A stretch of 64,000 bases of DNA from Gammaproteobacteria bacterium (GCA_047517965.1 JAKZRU010000001.1:39714-103713); one strand, 5' to 3'. Counted from the stretch's first letter, positions 48,817 to 61,251 are shown. The notes: generated from the sequence alone by a model not told the origin. Made by a program: numbers and translations.

Positions 48817-49777
48817 GGTGCACTCAATTAATCTAAAGACTGTTGTCGCACTGAGTGTACTGTTTGCGGTTCTTGTTGTACTTCCGCACTTCCTCAAATA
48901 TCATCATCAGGATTTTCTAATTTTTCTCACCATAAACATTCTGGTGGTTGTGAGCTACAGGCTGGTTACACTTACTGGCGAATGGTCACTGATTCACGCC
49001 GTCATGATGGGTGTTGGCGCATATACGAGCGCGATTCTAAGTAAAAACTTCGACATATCCTTTTGGATTACGCTTCCGCTTGCAGGTCTTGCCGCAGGAA
49101 CAATGGCAGCTTTGCTGAGTTATCCGCTGTTTCGCATGACGCAGTTCTATTTCCTGATCGGCTCATTCGCTGCGGGTGAAGCCATTCGACTATGCTGGAT
49201 CCAGTTTATCCAGCCGTTCGGTGGTTCAGGAGGCATCAGTGGAATTCCATCACCGGAACTCTTAAACATTGATTTTCTTGAACCAATCCCGTATTTCTAT
49301 CTTGCTCTTATCATCGTTAGTGTCTGTATATTCCTGCTCTATCGAATCGAGAATTCCAGAATTGGATTGACCTTGCATGCAGTTCACTGGAAAGGCGTGC
49401 TGGCCGAATCCGTCGGGGTGAATACTTGGAACTATCGGTCACTTGCGTTCATAATCGGTTCGTTGTTCGTCGGTTTGGCGGGTGCGCTCAAGGTGCACTA
49501 CATAGGAACGGTAGCTCCCAAGCAATTTGATATCGGCTTTATGGTGTTTATCTTGATCTGGGTGGTCGTGGGCGGTTACAGAACTATTTATGGCGGTATA
49601 GTGGGTGCGGTTGTGCTATCAATTCTCAATGAACTTTTCCGTGAAATTGATCAGCTTCGACCGGCAATCTATGGTGCCACCTTGATCATTTTTATTCTGT
49701 ATCTGCCTGGAGGGATGGAAAGCATCCCGCAGAAGATAAGAAGTCTGCGGCAGATGAGACAAAGGAAGATGACATGA
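48809..49777 (+). CDS. Branched-chain-amino-acid-type ABC permease (LivM-like)
   Basis: 322 aa, GTG start overlapping the previous stop. Hydrophobic. LTGEWSLIHAVMMGVGAY block. Confidence 0.85.
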   Translation: MNRVHSINLKTVVALSVLFAVLVVLPHFLKYHHQDFLIFLTINILVVVSYRLVTLTGEWSLIHAVMMGVGAYTSAILSKNFDISFWITLPLAGLAAGTMAALLSYPLFRMTQFYFLIGSFAAGEAIRLCWIQFIQPFGGSGGISGIPSPELLNIDFLEPIPYFYLALIIVSVCIFLLYRIENSRIGLTLHAVHWKGVLAESVGVNTWNYRSLAFIIGSLFVGLAGALKVHYIGTVAPKQFDIGFMVFILIWVVVGGYRTIYGGIVGAVVLSILNELFREIDQLRPAIYGATLIIFILYLPGGMESIPQKIRSLRQMRQRKMT

Positions 49778-50529
49778 TGCCGATCCTCGAAGTCAAGAAC
49801 CTTATCAAGCAGTTTGGTGGTTTGATCGCAGTGAATGATGTCAGTTTCGAGGTTAACGATGGTGATATTCATGGATTGATTGGTCCGAATGGAGCAGGAA
49901 AAAGCACTACGTTCAAGATTGTTGCCGGATTCATGTCGCCAACTGAGGGCGATGTGCTGTTCCACAATTCAAGCATAAAAGGGCAGAAACCATCGACAAT
50001 TGCCACACTTGGAATCGCACGCACTTTTCAGGAAACAACGCTGTTTCAGGAATTAAGTGTTTTCAACAATATTCTGATCGGTGTTCATAAGGAAGCCCGC
50101 ACCGATATTTTCTCGGCACTCTTGGGACTGGATCATGAAAAGCAGCAGGCTGCTTCTGAAGCAACAACCCAAGTGATTGAGTTTATGGGACTCTCCGATC
50201 GACAGAATCAGTTGGCAGCGGAACTCCCGCTTGGATATCAACGAATTCTTGCAATTTCGATTGCACTGGCATCAAAACCCAGTTTGTTGTTGATGGATGA
50301 GCCGTTTGCAGGCATGAATCCAGAAGAGACCCGACACATGATGGAACTCACTCGGAAAGTCCGGGAAACCGGAATTACGATAGTACTGGTCGAACACAAC
50401 ATGAACGCCATTATGGGATTGTGTGATCGCCTTACTGTATTGAATTTCGGTACTGTTCTGGATGACGGAACGCCGGAGCAGGTGCGAAATAATCCTGATG
50501 TGATTCAGGCCTATCTTGGTGGCAGCTAG
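49774..50529 (+). CDS. ABC ATP-binding protein (LivG-like)
   Basis: Walker A GPNGAGKST, Walker B LLLMDEPFAGMNP. 4-nt overlap with the permease gene. Confidence 0.9.
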   Translation: MMPILEVKNLIKQFGGLIAVNDVSFEVNDGDIHGLIGPNGAGKSTTFKIVAGFMSPTEGDVLFHNSSIKGQKPSTIATLGIARTFQETTLFQELSVFNNILIGVHKEARTDIFSALLGLDHEKQQAASEATTQVIEFMGLSDRQNQLAAELPLGYQRILAISIALASKPSLLLMDEPFAGMNPEETRHMMELTRKVRETGITIVLVEHNMNAIMGLCDRLTVLNFGTVLDDGTPEQVRNNPDVIQAYLGGS

Positions 50530-50540
50530 GAATTATCGCG

Positions 50541-51248
50541 ATGGACCTGGTAGTTTCAAACCTAAAAGTCAATTACCACAATGTTGCAGCGCTGAAAGGC
50601 ATTAGTTTTAGTGTATCCGCAGGCGCTTTTATTACATTGATTGGTTCAAATGGTGCAGGAAAAAGTACGACTCTGCGGGCCATTTCAGGGCTGGTAAGAC
50701 CGAGTGCCGGATCTATCACATTGGACGATCAGAGAATTGACAACATTGCAGCGGACAAGCTACTTTCCATGGGAATTGCTCACGTCCCGGAGGGACGGCG
50801 AGTGTTCAAGGACCTTTCGGTATTGGAAAATCTGCTTCTTGGTGCGTTTATCTATAAAGACCAGCATCGAATCAATCAGGATCTTGACGAAGTGTATCGA
50901 CACTTTCCTGTACTGAAGGATAGGCAGAATCAGCAGGCGAGAACATTGAGCGGTGGCGAGCAGCAGATGCTTTCAATCGGGCGTGCTTTGATGTCGCGTC
51001 CCAAGATTCTGTTGCTTGACGAGCCGTCTTTAGGATTGGCGCCTTTGATCGTTCAGGAAATTGGGGAAATTTTGCAGGAAATTAACAAGCAGGGTGTTAC
51101 TGTCATTCTTGTCGAACAGAATGCAGATTTGGCATTGAAGCTGGTTGACTACGGATATGTTTTGGAAAACGGCAAAATTACCATGAACGACAAGGCCGAA
51201 GCCCTTTCCAACAACGAGCACGTCCAAAAGGCTTATCTCGGAATCTAA
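50541..51248 (+). CDS. ABC ATP-binding protein (LivF-like)
   Basis: Walker A GSNGAGKST, signature LSGGEQQMLSIGRAL, Walker B ILLLDEPSLGLAP. Confidence 0.9.
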   Translation: MDLVVSNLKVNYHNVAALKGISFSVSAGAFITLIGSNGAGKSTTLRAISGLVRPSAGSITLDDQRIDNIAADKLLSMGIAHVPEGRRVFKDLSVLENLLLGAFIYKDQHRINQDLDEVYRHFPVLKDRQNQQARTLSGGEQQMLSIGRALMSRPKILLLDEPSLGLAPLIVQEIGEILQEINKQGVTVILVEQNADLALKLVDYGYVLENGKITMNDKAEALSNNEHVQKAYLGI

Positions 51249-53617
51249 TCGGATTCCGGGTAGATTCCTCGAACTCGGGATTTAGTCGGATCAAAGTGAG
51301 GGAATGGCACAACCTTCGCAGGAATTCGTTTTTGGTGTTGATCCAGTTTGCCAATCTCTATTTCAGTGCCGTCAGCCGCATACTCAATATTCATCTTGCA
51401 CAGGGCGATGGTTTTTCCAAGCACGGGAGAAATGGTTGAACTTGTAATTTCTCCGACTTTGTAGCGTCCCTCAAATACGCCATCTCCACTTGCGGCAGCT
51501 TCCCGGCCGGCAAGCTCAAGACCGACCAACTTGCGTTGCGGGCTCGCCGCCTTACGTCGTTCCAACGCATCGCGGCCGATAAAGTTGTCAGTCTTCGATT
51601 TGAGTGGAACAGTAAATGGTATGCCGGCTTCAAATGGGTCAGTTTGCTCACAAAATTCTTGGCCCGCAAAAATAAGCCCGGCTTCAATGCGAAGAATATC
51701 CAATGCTTCAAGCCCCATGGGTTTGACGGTGGATATGTCCTGTTCCAAAAGAATGCGCCAAACTTTTGAAGCGTCACGAGGGTGACAGAAAATTTCATAG
51801 CCAAGTTCTCCCGTGTAGCCAGTACGAGAAATGATGATTGGCACGCCGGTTGAGTTGCACATCCGGGCAATGGAAAATCGAAACCACTCCAGTTCTGCAA
51901 CAGATGCCTGATCCGGCCGCGTCCAGATCAACTGTTTTAGGATGTTGCGGCTCTCGGGTCCTTGCACCTGAAGATTGGCCAACTGGTCAGTTGAATTTTT
52001 AACCCAGGCCTTCAATCCCAGTTCTTCGGCCTTCTGACGCAGCCACAATCCAGAACCATCACATCCTCCTACCCATCGAAAATTGTTCTGGCCGATGCGA
52101 AAGACCGTGCCATCATCAATCATTCCGCCGGATGGATTGCACATCGCAGTGTACGTTACCTGTCCGGATGAAAGCTTCTTGATGTCTCTCGTCACGCAAG
52201 TCTGAAGAAGCATTTCCGCATCGGGTCCTACAACCTCATATTTTCTCAGCGCTGAAAGATCAATCATCACCGCCCCTTGACGGCAGGCCCAGTATTCTTC
52301 AATTGCGCCTTGGTTGGTATACGCATTTGCTATCCAGTATCCTGCGTATTCGACAAAGTGTCGAGTCAATTTGGAGGTTTCAGAATGAAATCCAGTTTCT
52401 TGTGTCATGGTGGGATCCGCATCTGTGGTTTTTCGAACTGCTATGGACTGTTTGAACATCTCGTTACTACCGTATACGCGCACTTGGATATCAGTTGGAT
52501 TCCAGGCATTGGCCGCGTCAATATCGTCAGGGCATGAAGATGACACGCACACCATATCTCTGAGTGCACGCATAAGCACATAATCTCCCGGCCTGGACCA
52601 GGGTTCATCCATATAAAGCTGAAAACTGTCATCGAAAAAAGAGTTGAAGAATAGATTGATTGCCATCCAGCCTTTTCGAGGAGACACAGGGTATTCTTGG
52701 AGGGCATAATTGAAGTTATCAGAACAGTTGACGTGACCTGGATATCCTGCGTCATCATAGAATTTGCTAGTGCAGGCGAGACCAAAACTGTCGTGCCGAC
52801 CGCAAGTGTCCTGGACCACTTCAATAACAGGTTCTAGATCGAAATCAAAGAATTTCGAGGCAAGACCTGGTCTCGGATAGGCCGCACCTGTAAGTGATCG
52901 GGTTGCAGTTGCATCAAGACAGCGTTCCAAGCCTTTGTCGAGAGATTTTAGGTCAAAGCACTGGAAATCAGAGCACTGGCGTCCGTCTATGTCGAGTATC
53001 TGAATGTATTCTCCAGCCTTCACTTCGTAACTCACTGCAGTTGCCGCTTTGATTGTGAAATCTTGACGCGTGGTTGCCAGTGGATCTGGCAGACCGTTTG
53101 CAATGTGCTGGTTTGGATGACTGCGAGTAACCCATACGATCAGATCGGTCGGTGGGTTCTGTTCACTCACTTTCATTGGTTCGCCAGGAGCACCAATGAT
53201 GACGATGCACTCGGTATTGCAGGTTAGTGTTTCTCGGCACCCCGGTAATGTTTCTCCATCGAGATAAACAGCGGCCTGTGCGTTTGCCAAATCCATGTCG
53301 AATAATTTTAGTTTTGACCTAATTTTGGAGGCGCCGTTTGTATCGCGCTTCAGCATCTGAGCAAGCTTTTGTCCAGTTGTAGCGGTACTATAGGAGAATT
53401 GTCCGGTACTAACTGCACCCTTGGAATCGAAAGCAACGATATGTGCACACTGCAATCCTTCCGGATCGACAATTTCAACAGTGTCGCCAGCGAGAAAGGG
53501 AATAACGACTAGTGCACCGCCTCGGACAGTATAGCGTTCTTGGCCAATGCCGAAATTTGCAAGTCCAGGTTCGCGAACTTGCTTGGAGAAGTCAGATGCT
53601 AGATTTACAGTTGACAT
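51245..53617 (-). CDS. tdm: Trimethylamine-N-oxide demethylase-like (DUF1989-type N-domain + GcvT folate-binding C-domain)
   Basis: About 790 aa from the ATG at 53617 (the track TTG at 53677 is rejected). The C-terminal half has aminomethyltransferase blocks (CRQGAVMIDLSALRKYEVVGPDAEMLLQ; TGYTGELGYEIF). The two-domain length matches my recollection of Tdm. Context is tmm/gmaS. Confidence 0.75.
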   Translation of the reverse strand: MSTVNLASDFSKQVREPGLANFGIGQERYTVRGGALVVIPFLAGDTVEIVDPEGLQCAHIVAFDSKGAVSTGQFSYSTATTGQKLAQMLKRDTNGASKIRSKLKLFDMDLANAQAAVYLDGETLPGCRETLTCNTECIVIIGAPGEPMKVSEQNPPTDLIVWVTRSHPNQHIANGLPDPLATTRQDFTIKAATAVSYEVKAGEYIQILDIDGRQCSDFQCFDLKSLDKGLERCLDATATRSLTGAAYPRPGLASKFFDFDLEPVIEVVQDTCGRHDSFGLACTSKFYDDAGYPGHVNCSDNFNYALQEYPVSPRKGWMAINLFFNSFFDDSFQLYMDEPWSRPGDYVLMRALRDMVCVSSSCPDDIDAANAWNPTDIQVRVYGSNEMFKQSIAVRKTTDADPTMTQETGFHSETSKLTRHFVEYAGYWIANAYTNQGAIEEYWACRQGAVMIDLSALRKYEVVGPDAEMLLQTCVTRDIKKLSSGQVTYTAMCNPSGGMIDDGTVFRIGQNNFRWVGGCDGSGLWLRQKAEELGLKAWVKNSTDQLANLQVQGPESRNILKQLIWTRPDQASVAELEWFRFSIARMCNSTGVPIIISRTGYTGELGYEIFCHPRDASKVWRILLEQDISTVKPMGLEALDILRIEAGLIFAGQEFCEQTDPFEAGIPFTVPLKSKTDNFIGRDALERRKAASPQRKLVGLELAGREAAASGDGVFEGRYKVGEITSSTISPVLGKTIALCKMNIEYAADGTEIEIGKLDQHQKRIPAKVVPFPHFDPTKSRVRGIYPESD

Positions 53618-53798
53618 TGTGCTACCGTGTGCTGAATTAATTTCAGTATAGTATAGCGAGAAAGTAGCTGAAGCCAAACATACGGAGATAGTGAAATTAT
53701 TGTTGTGAACCCCAATGCCAATTGAATTAAATTTGAACGATCTAGGGAGATTAAACCCGAGCGACTCCGCTGCCCAGTTTAGATATTAATGGGCTGAA

Positions 53799-56700
53799 TC
53801 ATGCTTGTGGAATTGAAACATCGATTACGCAGACTGAAATCCTACGTTTTTCATCTGATGTGAGTGCATCAAGTAATCGGTTTCGGAGTTCATCGGCACT
53901 ATTGGGAAGTTTACCCGAATCCGGATTTTGGCAACAATCCCTGCCAAACCAGAATACCAGTAGAATTCCATATCCATTAGAATTCGGGTCGCGCGTATAT
54001 TTTCGAATCAAATGCTCCTGGATAGCGCTCCACAAATCTCGACTGTCACTCTTTTTAACCTCCACCGGCACGTTGTAACCATCGTAAGAAATAAGCATGT
54101 CCGAACGTTTGTCATCCGTATGTTCGACTTCCTTGTGAACGCTTATCCCTAAATGTCGTAGTTCTGTACACAATTTCCCCATCAAGGTATCACGACACAG
54201 ATTTTCTATTCTCGGTCTCTCGGGATTTCGTCCGCTAAAGTTCCAGAAATCCCGCCATCCAGAAGAGTTCCCGTTAGAAATATCATTACCGATGTTTTTA
54301 ATGCAGTCCACTGCTAGTGCAGCAAGGTCAGTGGAATTTGCAGGCTTATTGTTGCTTAGTGTTTCAAGCACCTTTTCAATACTGTAACTACAAAATTCTG
54401 CTTCACGTCTAATGATGCGTTGTCGATGTTGTGCATCAGTAAGGTATCTTTGCCAATCCGGTAAATCTTCCGATAAAGACTGAAGAGATTCACCAGCGGA
54501 TTGGCTTGAATTAGAAGCAAGTTGATCAATAAAGCCACGAATACAGTTAGATGCAAACTTGGCGATTGATATCCAGTCCGTACTTTTGGAATGCTCAAAT
54601 GGACGATATGACGACCCGATCAGCTTTATAAGTTTCTCTAAGACAGAAGAATTTTCTTGAATTGACAACCAAATTGATTTGTCCACGTTGACTGCAAATT
54701 CCGTAAAGTGCCGAATGCGACGCTCATCCTTTTTCAAATAGGAAATTAGTTTTCCACAAAAATCCTCTGGTTCGACAATGAGCCCTGTAGCCAGCCAGTA
54801 AATTTTCTGAGCTACGGTGATACTCTTGCTAGCTATTTTTCTTCTAATCAATTCTAGCAACTGTGCTTTCTCGCAAAATTGGATGGATGCCTGAAGCAGA
54901 CAATTCAAACTCCCAAGTTGTGAGTTCTTGCAATATACAGGAAACAAATTGAGAAGTTTTAACCCTACAAGTGAAGCAACTTCCGCATAATCTTGATCCA
55001 ATGCCAGCTTATTAAGTACGTCAGGAATCTCCTTGTTACGAAATTTCAAACGAGCCCAGTGAACGATAAAGTCGGAAACCAAATCTGGACTGGAGCTAAG
55101 CAATGAAGAAAACCACTTTGGAGATTTAGCTCCTGAATGATTCGGATCAACCCAGTCTGCTGTGGTGTAGTAAAAAGCGAGTGATAAACGACTTTGTTTT
55201 TCATCAAGAGAAATTTCGCTAGGCGGTGCTGATTTGGTAATTTCATCTAACCCGGCTAAATACGGAAGTGCCAGATAGTGATTTTGTTTCCGGCTTTCCA
55301 ACTTTAGAATTTCGGCTACGTCAGGAAGATCATTTCGTTTAATCGAACTTCTGAATGCTTGCATAACTGCATCATGCAATTCTATATCGTCGTTGCAAAT
55401 CCATTTGATGCGGAGCGACGGAGAATCGTCTTGAACATCCATATATCTACCGTAGTAAACTAGGGCCAAATGGTGCAGATAATTCGGAGGGCACCTGTTC
55501 CCCCGCATTGCCGTTAAATAAGGCATCAATCCTGTGTGCCAATCCTGCTGTCGAGTTTGCTCCTGCTTTTCAAATTCGCTTCGCCTTTTGGTTTCCTTTG
55601 CATGATGTTGCTCTGCTTCGACAAGATGACTATTACGCTCTCGCTGAATCTCTTGATACACGCTTTCTTGTATCGTATGGCTTGCAACCTGGAAGTTGAC
55701 TAACTGTGAAACTTCACTATTCAGAGCTTTTTCAAGAAAAAATTTGATTTGTATTCGATCATTTCTAGTCATTGCTTGTTCTAGACACCATGATCCGAAA
55801 TCAACTGGTGCCTCTGCGCCAAATAAACGTCTTTCGATGCTCCGTTTCAACTTTCTGAAATCATCTGAATCCGGACGTTGTTCCATACTGACCAGAATTA
55901 ACTCTTTCTGCATTTCGGGATTTTGAGTTAACCAATTTCTAACGCGTTTGACATCCTCGTAGTCTTGTTGAAAATCAGGTATATCCGACACTAGTCCCAA
56001 CCATCTGTGAAGTTGATCAGGAGTAATTCTTTCTGTCGAAGAAACAAGAATTCTTGACAACAGTTTGATTGGAATTTTACGTATCCAGAGTGGACGTAAG
56101 CGATCAAAACCTTCACCAAAAAATGCGACGTCTTCGGCAGAATCAAGCATTGATATGAGCTGGGTACCGGATGATGTTTCCACGACGTGCCGGTACCAAA
56201 ATTCAAAGTATTTTGCAAACAGTACGGGTTCTTTGGGTTGAAAAAGATATTTCCAAATTTCTGACGAATTCAAATTGTCAGGATAAAGCGCACACAATAC
56301 ATTTCCTAGCAATTCGTCATCTGGGTCTGATACGGTTCCCGCGTACAAATCATTCAGTAATTTTTTTAGTTGTCCAGTAGGCTCAAATCTGTTGGAATAG
56401 CGAATAAATACATCAAGCGCGGTATGGCGTATCCCACTTTTCCATTTTTCATCCCTAACAATTTCCATCACTAGGTCGGCTTGTTCCGGGAACTCTTGTC
56501 CATACTTTAGTGAATTGAGCAAAATTTTTACGAACGACTGTCGCTCATCGTCTCGTCTACGGTCTTGAAGAAATTCTCGAAAATACTGCTCCATGCCAAC
56601 TGACACCAATTCTCCTATCGCGGGGTTAGACTCGAATATTGTCCAACTCCACGGGTCTTTCCTTGACTCGTTGTGAAGACTATCGAAAATCAGCCGCTTC

Positions 56701-57869
56701 TCACAGACCGAGAATTTTCGGATATCGCCATATAAAATCGTTCCGACCGGGTCGCGCTCGACAATCTCTGCTCGACTACAATTGCTATGCGATGCAAGCC
56801 AAGCAGCAAGACCGCTCAAATTAGATACAATTCCTCCATCGTTTCCTGTCATAAGCGCCAAAACTCTTTGAAGCGGAAGCCCACCTTTATCGATCAGGGA
56901 GGCTAAATATCTCGCCGCCAAGAACTCAGCAATGTTTCGATGAGTTGGAACTACACAATCCTCAACCTTGAATAGTTTCGTATTAAGCGTGTGCCGAATC
57001 GATCTGAGTTTGAATTTTTTATCGGATATTTCTCGTACGTCTATCGCTTCATGGCTAATTTCGTGACCGGCAGGAGTGAATCCAGTTCGACCTGCTAGCA
57101 ACTGCACAGCACTAAGGAATCCAGCGATATCCATTAATTCGGCATCGCTTAAGTCTTGCGTTTCTGCGTCGTAGTAATTTTGGTTGCATTCACGAAGAAG
57201 CGTCTTACACGCCAGTTCGAATGTTTCTGTCCGACTTTCGGGCCAGGAATTTTTGTTCCCGACAATTTTCGCCAGCATCTCTAGGCTCTGAGGATTGGCA
57301 AGCAACGAATCAATTCCTATTGTTTTACTTTCTCCAATAAATTCTTCTATGTTTTGAATATTTATATTTTGCTTAAGAAATTCATGAATTCCATCATCCG
57401 ACAACGGTTCCAAGCGAAGTACTATCACCTTTGCATTGTCCAATATTCCTCTCTCAAGGCTTTCCTTGTAGTTTGTTCTAAACCACTCTATATCACGGCA
57501 GGACAGGCGAAATTGTTTACACTTCAGAGAGTAAAGATTCTTGCAAATCTTTCCAAACTGTGAACGTCCGCCACTCGTCCCCGTAGTTATTTCATCAAGC
57601 CCATCAATAAACAGCACTTTGTCTCGCCATTCAGGTTTATAACTAAAATCAATAAAGTCTCTTGCGGAAACAAAGCAATACTCTTCTGGGTTGGATTCAA
57701 CCTCATGCAGAAATGATGTGGATTTGCCCACTCCAGGTGCTCCTAGCAGTACATAAGCATCTACAATTCGATAGTCTTCCAGAGTGGCGGGAAGATTATT
57801 CGCCGCTCCTGAATTTCTTTCAGCACTAATTTCAATGCAAGTGCGCGGGACAAAAATCTTTGAATTCAT
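53799..57869 (-). CDS. NACHT-type STAND NTPase with C-terminal PD-(D/E)xK-like nuclease module
   Basis: The ATG at 57869 overlaps the upstream stop (ATGA); an alternative GTG lies at 57878. Walker A LLGAPGVGKST, Walker B VLFIDGLDE, and RLEPLSDDGIHEFL as in NACHT. About 1000 aa of unassigned, apparently helical sequence follows. The C-terminus reads HKEVEH...RSDMLISYDGYNVPVEVKKS. Confidence 0.7.
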   Translation of the reverse strand: MNSKIFVPRTCIEISAERNSGAANNLPATLEDYRIVDAYVLLGAPGVGKSTSFLHEVESNPEEYCFVSARDFIDFSYKPEWRDKVLFIDGLDEITTGTSGGRSQFGKICKNLYSLKCKQFRLSCRDIEWFRTNYKESLERGILDNAKVIVLRLEPLSDDGIHEFLKQNINIQNIEEFIGESKTIGIDSLLANPQSLEMLAKIVGNKNSWPESRTETFELACKTLLRECNQNYYDAETQDLSDAELMDIAGFLSAVQLLAGRTGFTPAGHEISHEAIDVREISDKKFKLRSIRHTLNTKLFKVEDCVVPTHRNIAEFLAARYLASLIDKGGLPLQRVLALMTGNDGGIVSNLSGLAAWLASHSNCSRAEIVERDPVGTILYGDIRKFSVCEKRLIFDSLHNESRKDPWSWTIFESNPAIGELVSVGMEQYFREFLQDRRRDDERQSFVKILLNSLKYGQEFPEQADLVMEIVRDEKWKSGIRHTALDVFIRYSNRFEPTGQLKKLLNDLYAGTVSDPDDELLGNVLCALYPDNLNSSEIWKYLFQPKEPVLFAKYFEFWYRHVVETSSGTQLISMLDSAEDVAFFGEGFDRLRPLWIRKIPIKLLSRILVSSTERITPDQLHRWLGLVSDIPDFQQDYEDVKRVRNWLTQNPEMQKELILVSMEQRPDSDDFRKLKRSIERRLFGAEAPVDFGSWCLEQAMTRNDRIQIKFFLEKALNSEVSQLVNFQVASHTIQESVYQEIQRERNSHLVEAEQHHAKETKRRSEFEKQEQTRQQDWHTGLMPYLTAMRGNRCPPNYLHHLALVYYGRYMDVQDDSPSLRIKWICNDDIELHDAVMQAFRSSIKRNDLPDVAEILKLESRKQNHYLALPYLAGLDEITKSAPPSEISLDEKQSRLSLAFYYTTADWVDPNHSGAKSPKWFSSLLSSSPDLVSDFIVHWARLKFRNKEIPDVLNKLALDQDYAEVASLVGLKLLNLFPVYCKNSQLGSLNCLLQASIQFCEKAQLLELIRRKIASKSITVAQKIYWLATGLIVEPEDFCGKLISYLKKDERRIRHFTEFAVNVDKSIWLSIQENSSVLEKLIKLIGSSYRPFEHSKSTDWISIAKFASNCIRGFIDQLASNSSQSAGESLQSLSEDLPDWQRYLTDAQHRQRIIRREAEFCSYSIEKVLETLSNNKPANSTDLAALAVDCIKNIGNDISNGNSSGWRDFWNFSGRNPERPRIENLCRDTLMGKLCTELRHLGISVHKEVEHTDDKRSDMLISYDGYNVPVEVKKSDSRDLWSAIQEHLIRKYTRDPNSNGYGILLVFWFGRDCCQNPDSGKLPNSADELRNRLLDALTSDEKRRISVCVIDVSIPQA

Positions 57870-59145
57870 TTGAACCACTCTGAAGCAGGAGTTGTAAAAA
57901 ACTCTGATAATCCAACTCCATTTTTACCAACGATTAATGTATTGGCACTCTGAAACTGACTTGAGAACTCGCTAAGACCACTAAGTTTCCCAAGTGAACT
58001 TGCACCGCTCTTAACCTCTACGGCGACAATTTTTTTGCCGCGCTCAAGTACGAAATCTACCTCGAATCCGCGATGCGCCAATAATGCACGCGTATCTCAG
58101 GAAATCCAGAATTAATTAAGTGTGCTCCAACTGCACTTTCAACCAAACGACCCCAATAGCTTCTATCCGATTTTGCCTCCTCGAATGTGTAACCGGAATA
58201 CGCGGACATGAATGCGGTGTTAAGCACGTTGAGTTTAGGGCTTGATGCCCTTCGATGGATAGTTCCTTGCGCATATTTTTGAATACCAATCATTAGTCCT
58301 GCGCTACCCAATAAATCCAAGTAGTGCGCCAAAGTTGTTGTATTCCCTGCATCTTGAAGTTGGCCAAGCATTTTGTTGTATGACAAAATCTGCCCAGAAT
58401 ATACGGCTCCGAGTTCGAAAAGCCGTTTCAAAATTATGGGTTTGTCTACTCGTTGAATAGCAAGAACATCACGTTCCAGATTGGGCTCGACAACTGCACT
58501 TCTAACATACTCCCGCCAACGGCTTTGATCGCCGATAAGTGACGCTGAACCCGGAATGCCCCCGAAATATAGGTAACGATCTAAATCGATATCGAATGCC
58601 ACTGACATTTCATCGAAAGACCAATGCGATAAGTAAATCGTTTCAAATCGCCCAAGTAAACTCTCATGTGTTCCTTTTCGCATCAACAGAGGCGCTGACC
58701 CCAACAGAACTACATGCAGTTGAACTCCACTATGTCGGTCTGCATCCCACAATCCTTTGACTGTTGTCGACCAATTCGGTATGAATTGAATTTCATCAAA
58801 TACGAGAACAAGTCCTTGTTTCGAACCTAGTGACTCAATTCGAGCCTGTTCCCAGCAACGTACTAGCCAGCGCTTATCTCTCGCGACACTACGCGAGGTG
58901 TACATATTGCTCGAAGTGGTGAAATTTTCATTTTCAATACTGAAGAAAGGCGGAGTAGCTTCTGCTTCAGGCTCGTCTACAGCAAAATAACGATATGGTT
59001 TATCAAGCCGTGTCAAAGCCTGTGTTACAAGTGTAGTCTTACCAGTTTGACGAGGGCCAGTGACAATAATTAAATGCGTTGGATCTTCGTTCAAACAAGC
59101 ACACAACGTTGAAATTTGCTCGCGTGAAAATTCTTTCATATTCAT
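57866..59145 (-). pseudogene. AAA ATPase of the AAA_14/DUF4143 type, interrupted by a -1 frameshift near 58075
   Basis: The 362-aa ORF (Walker A GPRQTGKTT, Walker B LVFDEIQ) ends ...IRVHYWRIADSR-stop. The overlapping 71-aa ORF continues in another frame as HRGFEVDFVLERGKKIVAVEVKSG, the expected DUF4143 C-terminus. Restoring one nucleotide after TGGCG joins them into about 430 aa. Confidence 0.7.
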
Positions 59146-59393
59146 TTAGTAACGGCAAAATTAACTCATTACCTGAAGAGAGAAATGCGTTGTCAGCTTT
59201 TTTCGATCAATTGGTTGCATTGAACGGATAAGATTCAACTGAGAAACACATGATTGTTCACTATCCCGGGATTTATACCCTGACTCTTATCTTTCCTCGT
59301 GACATTGTTTGCTCGAGACAAAGTTCATTGAGATACAGCAGGTGATATAAAATCCACGCTAGCATAGTTTTGTACTAGAGAGGGTGAAATAGG

Positions 59394-61176: not shown

Positions 61177-61251
61177 TGGTGGGCGATACTGGGATTGAAC
61201 CAGTGGCCTCTGCCGTGTGAAGGCAGCGCTCTCCCGCTGAGCTAATCGCCC
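61177..61251 (-). tRNA. tRNA-Val (anticodon CAC), CCA encoded
   Basis: The reverse complement is GGGCGAT-TA-GCTC-AGCGGGA-GAGC-G-CTGCC-TTCACAC-GGCAG-AGGCC-ACTGG-TTCAATC-CCAGT-ATCGCCC-A-CCA. It folds by hand into a perfect cloverleaf, 75 nt. Confidence 0.95.

Follow-up and report, generated by a model that had tools for sequence, protein, structure and literature searches.

A gammaproteobacterial NACHT gene and its overlapping ATPase gene: a probable paired branch of the Erebus (EruA)/Avs10 anti-phage family

A stretch of 64,000 nucleotides from a Gammaproteobacteria bacterium (GCA_047517965.1, JAKZRU010000001.1:39714-103713; hereafter the window) carries on its minus strand, between positions 53799 and 59145, a gene for a 1356-amino-acid protein with a NACHT NTPase and, overlapping its start, an upstream gene for an AAA_14/DUF4143 ATPase. 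The locus raises the question of whether these two genes form a single anti-phage system, and whether such a system is a new one. A first-pass annotation made from the sequence alone had proposed a candidate undescribed defence system in which both proteins end in a nuclease-like core. The unit is best explained as a two-gene anti-phage operon from a branch of the Erebus (EruA)/Avs10 family that is distinct, monophyletic and paired, with the ATPase as a dedicated partner, and we regard this reading as probable. A defence role is likely. The description as an undescribed system was not sustained, since the large protein falls in the Erebus (EruA)/Avs10 family and the ATPase corresponds to the catalogued candidate PDC-S01.

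The large gene (53799..57869, stop codon included) is intact and encodes 1356 amino acids from an ATG, starting MNSKIF; this open reading frame and that of the AAA_14/DUF4143 gene upstream were found as the first-pass annotation had given them. From sequence and modelling, the N-terminus is predicted to be a NACHT-type STAND module with nucleotide-binding, helical and winged-helix parts (approximately amino acids 30-400, 56670..57782, boundaries approximate). The Walker A motif GAPGVGKST (amino acids 43-51, 57717..57743) follows the pattern GxxGxGK[ST], and the Walker B motif VLFIDGLDE (amino acids 85-93, 57591..57617) contains DGLDE, in agreement with the signature D[GAS]hDE by which NACHT proteins have been defined (Kibby et al., preprint). 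Residues G43, P45, G46, G48, K49, D89, D92 and E93 were invariant in alignments of 25 and of 80 homologues, while G90 and L91 were invariant in the 25 and at least 90% conserved in the 80; 120 homologues cover the protein at 100% coverage. An AlphaFold2 model of amino acids 1-1160 (predicted local distance difference test score, pLDDT, 82.7) gave as its best Foldseek matches NLRC4 (4kxf, E 4e-6), NAIP5-NLRC4 (6b5b, 9.5e-5) and human NLRC4 (8fw2, 1.4e-4), and the modelled nucleotide-binding, helical and winged-helix fold resembles that of animal NLRs. The P-loop and Walker B motif read as NACHT-type at first pass are borne out by the invariance of these motifs, the DGLDE signature and the match to NLRC4. 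Profile searches, which had been proposed along with that reading, matched AAA_14, DUF4143, EruA and PDC-S01 models in the unit and left Pfam NACHT (PF05729) unmatched by the window protein at E <= 0.1, with one of the 25 homologues at 0.047. In a local copy of Pfam that did not contain PF28130 (DUF8371), a family annotated on its homologues, the large protein had no match at all. A search against PDB sequences gave nothing useful for the NACHT protein or the ATPase, and a PHROGs search gave no match.

Beyond the NACHT module the model is an all-alpha solenoid (approximately amino acids 401-1160, 54390..56669), and after the NLRC4-type matches Foldseek returned HEAT/ARM solenoids such as CAND1, importins and CRM1. 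This middle region is presumed to be a helical-repeat sensor, a role inferred from Avs10. One highly charged helix of about 55 residues (EAEQHHAKETKRRSEFEKQEQTRQQDW..., amino acids 735-789, window approximately 55503-55667) breaks up the solenoid; segments of low confidence lie on both sides of it, and its sequence is poorly conserved. The C-terminus (approximately amino acids 1200-1356, 53802..54272) is, by motif and by model, a PD-(D/E)xK-like domain, a predicted nuclease and the presumed effector. The model of amino acids 1150-1356 (pLDDT 82) has an alpha-beta-beta-beta-alpha-beta core that carries the conserved acidic residue, the D and the (D/E)xK motif of this superfamily, with D1257 placed just ahead of strand 2 and E1270-x-K1272 within strand 3. 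The putative catalytic codons span 54054..54131 (E1247 at 54129-54131, D1257 at 54099-54101, E1270 at 54060-54062 and K1272 at 54054-54056), and all four residues were invariant in the sequences of both alignments that reach the C-terminus (25 and 54). Foldseek matches of this domain were nearly all PD-(D/E)xK nucleases (Can1, EndoMS/NucS, Can2, Hjc, PspGI, SfsA and Avs4), and the PADLOC LmuA model matched weakly at amino acids 1226-1284. A C-terminal restriction-endonuclease-like core had been proposed before, and the invariant E-D-ExK residues, the modelled topology and the mostly nuclease fold matches agree with it.

The family of the large protein was indicated by the NCBIfam equivalog model NF058535 (antiphage_EruA, 'NACHT domain-containing antiphage protein EruA'), which aligned in a single stretch from amino acid 29 to 1352 with model positions 17-1318 of 1318 (2.3e-256, 854.3 bits). 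The homology to EruA is full-length and colinear in both domain order and length, and by sequence it places the large protein in the named, experimentally validated Erebus (EruA)/Avs10 family, with which it shares its length, whole-protein architecture and a NACHT NTPase with a large helical sensor. Lee et al. (preprint PMC12803255; Nature 2026, PMC13581612) credit the names Erebus and Hypnos to van den Berg et al. 2024. They place both, together with bNACHT64, in a STAND family called Avs10 and report that it is activated by the phage major capsid protein and that toxicity requires the effector domain. The Hypnos protein HyoA is in the same grouping and is a distant homologue of the window protein (NF058534, 5.6e-48 over amino acids 146-1351); identification as HyoA was rejected, the score being 163 bits against a cutoff of 1200. 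Other known systems, namely Avs1-4, Avs7 and bNACHT25, likewise combine a STAND NTPase, a helical-repeat sensor and a PD-(D/E)xK nuclease in a scheme of target binding, oligomerisation and DNA cleavage, and Avs4 is among the weak fold matches of the window's C-terminal domain. These are single-gene systems, however, without detectable sequence homology to the window protein; in Avs1-4 and Avs7 the nuclease (Cap4/Mrr-type PD-(D/E)xK) is N-terminal, whereas the window protein has its effector at the C-terminus, and the effector of bNACHT25 is an Mrr-like restriction endonuclease. The order of NTPase, long middle region and nuclease had seemed unusual at first pass, but an NTPase followed by repeats and a C-terminal effector is already noted as an infrequent but known layout of bacterial NACHT proteins (Kibby et al., preprint).

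By its domains and conserved residues the upstream gene is an AAA_14/DUF4143 ATPase with a PD-(D/E)xK end of its own. Its 5' part (58057..59145, minus strand) consists of 362 codons with the AAA_14 P-loop GPRQTGKTT, a DEIQ motif and DUF4143 (Pfam 3.6e-22 for AAA_14 and 1.6e-16 for DUF4143) and runs into a premature stop after a frameshift; the tail, called as an open reading frame at 57866-58081 on the same strand, matches the end of DUF4143. The PADLOC PDC-S01 submodel PDLC04791 matched the N-terminal part (3.9e-136), the tail (3.9e-16, model positions 331-394) and an intact allele (5.7e-159), and no NCBIfam model matched the ATPase. The first-pass annotation had referred to a frameshift, and it was traced to one missing G by alignment with L001, a metagenome contig that is 99% identical, has the same tdm/ABC-transporter context and carries an intact gene that reads through (...HYWRHRGFEVDFVLERG...). 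The deletion, of one G of a CGG, lies at 58075..58076, at codon ~359 of 426 and between YWR and EVDF, and it splits codons 1-359 from an out-of-frame 3' remnant (57866..58072) with EVDF (D codon 58055-58057) and EVK (E codon 58016-58018, K codon 58010-58012). The window's ATPase product would accordingly be without the D and ExK residues. Among 71 ATPase partners GPRQxGKTT, DEiQ, the ESavGAHL helix, EVDF and EVK are at least 95% conserved, and the C-terminus of the intact allele matches the YraN family (2.8e-5). The 90%-identity cluster of the ATPase contains mostly intact 426-amino-acid forms, together with a second 362-amino-acid form that likewise ends in the aberrant HYWRIADSR, has two further substitutions and is present on 10 contigs. 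Because the same truncated allele recurs in this way, the frameshift is genuine and inherited rather than an isolated error of assembly. Programmed frameshifting was considered and rejected, as the gene is one continuous reading frame in other loci and intact alleles occur in the same species cluster. It had further been remarked that the cores of the two C-termini have similar spacing, which is real but generic; an hhalign comparison of the two nuclease ends covered 23 columns only (the D...ExK motif) with a probability of 1%, and on this result the two ends were rejected as specific homologues.

The stop codon of the ATPase gene and the start codon of the NACHT gene overlap in an ATGA at 57866..57869, as had been noticed at first pass. 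Conservation of this arrangement was assessed by using the NACHT alignment, through the peptide patterns LFIDGLDE and ADWFG[AT]ND, to scan a single genome of each GTDB species, a design that samples the window's own clade. The scan found 80 loci, in Acidobacteriota, Gamma- and Alphaproteobacteria, Latescibacterota, Nitrospirota, Dadabacteria, Thermodesulfobacteriota, Binatia, Gemmatimonadota, Chloroflexota, Nitrospinota, Verrucomicrobiota, Spirochaetia, Rhodothermales and Entotheonella. With three metagenome loci added, a relative of the ATPase was directly upstream on the same strand in 83 of 83 cases, from more than 12 phyla, the ATPase relatives being 50-64% identical and the NACHT proteins 34-42%. 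A scan of IMG/VR with the ATPase alignment yielded two further paired loci, L095 and L096. Their NACHT proteins carry FLDGLDE and LIDGLDE; scanning the same database with the peptide patterns of the NACHT alignment gave no hit, a false-negative outcome of those patterns, since these two loci exist there. Pairing extends to relatives of these loci in Pelodictyon luteolum DSM 273 (CP000096.1, about 2.017-2.029 Mb) and in a Dechloromonas metagenome-assembled genome. The total is 87 of 87: every locus of a single monophyletic EruA branch has the two genes linked, and the linkage predicted by the first-pass annotation is well founded. Many of the 80 genomes have bin names that suggest marine sponge symbionts (Entotheonella, 'Porisulfidus', Latescibacterota, Dadabacteria, Binatia; APA_, RHO_ and CAR_ bins), and these record names hint at spread of the paired unit within one habitat. 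Giant open reading frames of 1700-1900 amino acids were observed less than 10 kb upstream of the pair in three loci (L044:917-6601, L060:1998-7607 and L076:3396-8507).

The junction between the genes is itself conserved: a 4-nt overlap of stop and start was present in 68 of the 75 loci with a complete upstream reading frame (ATGA in 50, GTGA in 17 and TTGA in one), and in the remaining seven the genes overlap by 1 nt or lie 2-3 nt apart. Pairwise identities of the NACHT protein and the ATPase are correlated (r=0.89, 71 pairs), with a mean identity of 63% for the ATPase and 44% for the NACHT protein. Simple neighbour-joining trees placed the paired NACHT proteins in one clade with the solo ones outside it, and the paired ATPases were monophyletic relative to two solo plasmid proteins. 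The paired ATPases also have a variable insertion of about 30 amino acids after the VDEP motif (amino acids ~60-90, window ~58876-58968) and the clade-specific residues R137, H144 and P221/N222/E224, none of which is found in the solo PDC-S01 proteins of Coxiella and Thermus; the insertion is a candidate contact surface for the NACHT partner. PDC-S01 has been described as an ATPase fused to a PD-(D/E)xK domain, and the window ATPase shares its domains as well as its conserved Walker and E/D/ExK residues. It differs from the catalogued system, a stand-alone gene, in belonging to a monophyletic subclade that bears the insertion and is locked to an EruA-type gene, and the window copy is moreover frameshifted.

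Onto the domain architecture, the invariant catalytic-type residues, the operon structure and its conservation, which are direct observations, a mechanism can be fitted by homology with the family. The product of the second gene would combine an N-terminal NACHT NTPase, an alpha-solenoid sensor of ~760 amino acids and a C-terminal PD-(D/E)xK nuclease effector. The sensor would bind a conserved phage protein, for which the major capsid protein is the precedent from tested Avs10 members, and binding would lead to ATP-dependent oligomerisation of the NACHT modules. The oligomer would then bring the nuclease domains together, so that DNA is cut and infection is stopped, probably at a cost to the cell. 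From fixed order, overlap and co-divergence we infer that the ATPase, encoded by the first gene, is a dedicated partner and not a chance neighbour, translationally coupled to and co-evolved with the second gene, and it may serve as a second effector, a modulator or a recycler. A stronger form of this proposal is that in one large branch of the Erebus/Avs10 family the NACHT sensor and the PDC-S01-type ATPase-nuclease make up an obligate two-component machine, in which, for example, a NACHT oligomer formed in response to phage might bring in or activate the ATPase-nuclease, which would then act as a second effector or amplifier; this we put forward only as a tentative possibility.

Several observations weigh against the proposal of a paired anti-phage operon. 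The window protein scores below the curated EruA cutoff of 1000 bits, as do four members of its clade (897-936 bits), while the cutoff is passed by the paired relatives L095 (1032 bits) and L096 (1040 bits) and by a solo Bradyrhizobium protein (1035 bits). Given this score and an identity of 29-31% to L095 and L096, the trigger of the window protein may differ from that of the relatives that pass. All of the Foldseek matches of the C-terminal domain are weak (E 0.012-0.16), the top ones, from Can1 to SfsA, having E 0.012-0.1 and template modelling scores of 0.25-0.41, and one tested PDC-S01 representative gave no protection against T4, T5 or T7. Unlike the window branch, which always has a PDC-S01-type ATPase gene 5' with an overlapping stop and start, EruA homologues are solitary on Vibrio, Pantoea and Bradyrhizobium plasmids and in Mesorhizobium, Rhodopseudomonas and Methylocystis; solo PDLC04791-type ATPases, 40-51% identical, occur on the Coxiella QpRS plasmid, a Thermus oshimai plasmid and two IMG/VR contigs. 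Since both parts are thus found alone, neither strictly needs the other. A description of an EruA/PDC-S01 operon or of an Erebus partner gene was not found in the accessible literature, the original Erebus paper (van den Berg et al. 2024) lying outside it. Enrichment of the neighbourhoods in defence genes, expected at first pass, is weak, as housekeeping genes predominate among the four nearest open reading frames (146 flanking frames in 37 loci) and only a few are DNA methyltransferases, mad2 or Fic, and a strong defence-island argument was dropped on this evidence.

The state of the unit among close relatives belongs with these points. The ATPase is broken and the NACHT gene intact in the window and in P0257, whereas in L121 (6001-11352, European Nucleotide Archive contig ERZ25069191, same context) the ATPase is an intact 426 amino acids and the NACHT gene falls into two reading frames of 533 and 789 codons; a further relative, in the clusters of P0001 and P0255, has a truncated NACHT protein of 417 amino acids on a 1.07-Mb contig. 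The unit is therefore polymorphic within the window's own species cluster. That either gene can be broken while the other is intact means that neither is addictive for the other, which speaks against the two being strictly interdependent, and the unit seems to be under relaxed selection in this lineage. As its ATPase is truncated, the pair as such is probably non-functional in this genome, and the unit would at best run here as a solo Erebus-like gene, or is decaying.

These facts bear differently on the alternatives. The EruA and PDC-S01 families each occur alone, NCBI names a single Erebus protein, EruA, and has no model for the ATPase, PADLOC lists PDC-S01 as a single-gene candidate, and related strains retain one gene with the other broken, all as would be expected if two independent, solo-capable defence systems were travelling together as a mini defence islet without functional interplay. 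Such a loose association would have to account for the same order and strand in every paired locus across more than 12 phyla, for the predominance of the 4-nt overlap, for co-divergence of the proteins and monophyly of both paired clades, and for an insertion and residues peculiar to the paired ATPases; fixed overlapping junctions of this kind are not usual between loose neighbours in a defence island, and we consider this explanation unlikely. A closer relationship of another sort is conceivable, in which the ATPase is not an effector and instead restrains a potentially self-toxic NACHT nuclease in the manner of an antitoxin or checkpoint, or helps to reset or disassemble it. Remodelling of complexes is a frequent activity of AAA+ proteins, the junction implies that translation is coupled and that the ATPase is synthesised first, and the ATPase is the more conserved of the two. 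An intact NACHT gene with a frameshifted ATPase on at least 10 contigs nevertheless indicates that the full-length ATPase is dispensable for viability, although the truncated 359-amino-acid product might still act, and the partner's own invariant E/D/ExK residues point to a catalytic and not merely regulatory role; on balance a restraining or helping ATPase seems improbable to us.

Least credible of all is that the cassette has no part in defence, being either a two-gene selfish or mobile element that uses the ATPase and nuclease for its own mobility or the source of a STAND signalling protein with a cellular role. It is a solitary insert of ~5.3 kb between unrelated housekeeping genes in many phyla, with a GC content below that of its surroundings and little enrichment of defence genes nearby. 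Against this, the unit lacks terminal and flanking repeats and contains neither an integrase nor a transposase, the large protein is homologous over its full length to a validated anti-phage family, and some loci do lie among toxin-antitoxin, abortive infection or restriction-modification genes (L002 with AbiE and PIN, L122 with HepT/MNT and Xre-MbcA), so that we give it very little weight. The two-gene anti-phage operon of the Erebus branch is the reading retained here.

In the window, the unit adjoins on one side tdm, the gene for trimethylamine N-oxide demethylase, and a Liv-type ABC transporter, and on the other an RND-adaptor-like gene, an EamA transporter, tRNA-Val, a HAD hydrolase and an MFS transporter. 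The tdm gene (NCBIfam NF053776, 1129 bits) and the LivG/LivF-type ABC ATPases next to it occupy positions 49774-53677; the same block adjoins the unit in L001 and L121, and the unit therefore sits at a fixed site in a methylamine-catabolism neighbourhood. The GC content of the unit is 42.6%, compared with 46.9% for the rest of the window and 48.5% for tdm, and lies in the lowest ~1% of 5.3-kb stretches in the window. A GC contrast had been seen at first pass and is real, but it was overstated there, tdm having been put at about 53%. Together with the occurrence of the same cassette among unrelated housekeeping genes in many phyla, the lowest GC of the window supports a horizontal origin of the unit; a search of its flanks for direct or inverted repeats turned up no convincing ones. 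The stretch 59146..59393, which separates the unit from the divergent RND-adaptor-like gene, is the presumed promoter region from the map of reading frames; no consensus promoter and no terminator signal rose above chance. A tRNA-Val(cac) gene (61177-61251, minus strand) is located 2 kb past the 5' end of the unit, beyond the RND-adaptor-like and EamA genes. ARAGORN also reported an unusually long, 98-nt tRNA-Pro(tgg) at 445-542 on the minus strand, which was not reported by Rfam at the gathering score.

Some further observations concern the solo relatives. In Rhodopseudomonas the solitary EruA homologue (L090:9493-13758 and L091:4899-9164) is followed by a trio of VWA, PP2C phosphatase and Ser-Thr kinase genes, with MobA/TraD and an integrase ahead of it, a context that places it on an integrative mobile element. 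None of the plasmids with an EruA-like gene (31-36) was among the seven plasmids with a close ATPase relative, and the Pantoea EruA-like DNA had no match when searched against E. coli genomes.

Both the EruA and the PDC-S01 parts of this locus are catalogued, and the EruA family is validated; it is their conserved pairing that appears to be new. PDC-S01 is the fourth commonest prokaryotic defence candidate reported and is mostly unvalidated, its one tested representative having failed to protect, and the mechanism of Erebus has been described as unclear, though Avs10 members are reported to sense capsid protein. A conserved, translationally coupled operon links these two families, and closely related strains offer natural single-gene knock-outs of it. 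For annotation, 'Erebus-like anti-phage NACHT protein' is a suitable name for the 1356-amino-acid 'hypothetical protein', and the upstream reading frames can be described as one frameshifted gene. If the two-component reading is true, the pair would provide the first functional context for PDC-S01 and would be a bacterial analogue of sensor/helper pairs.

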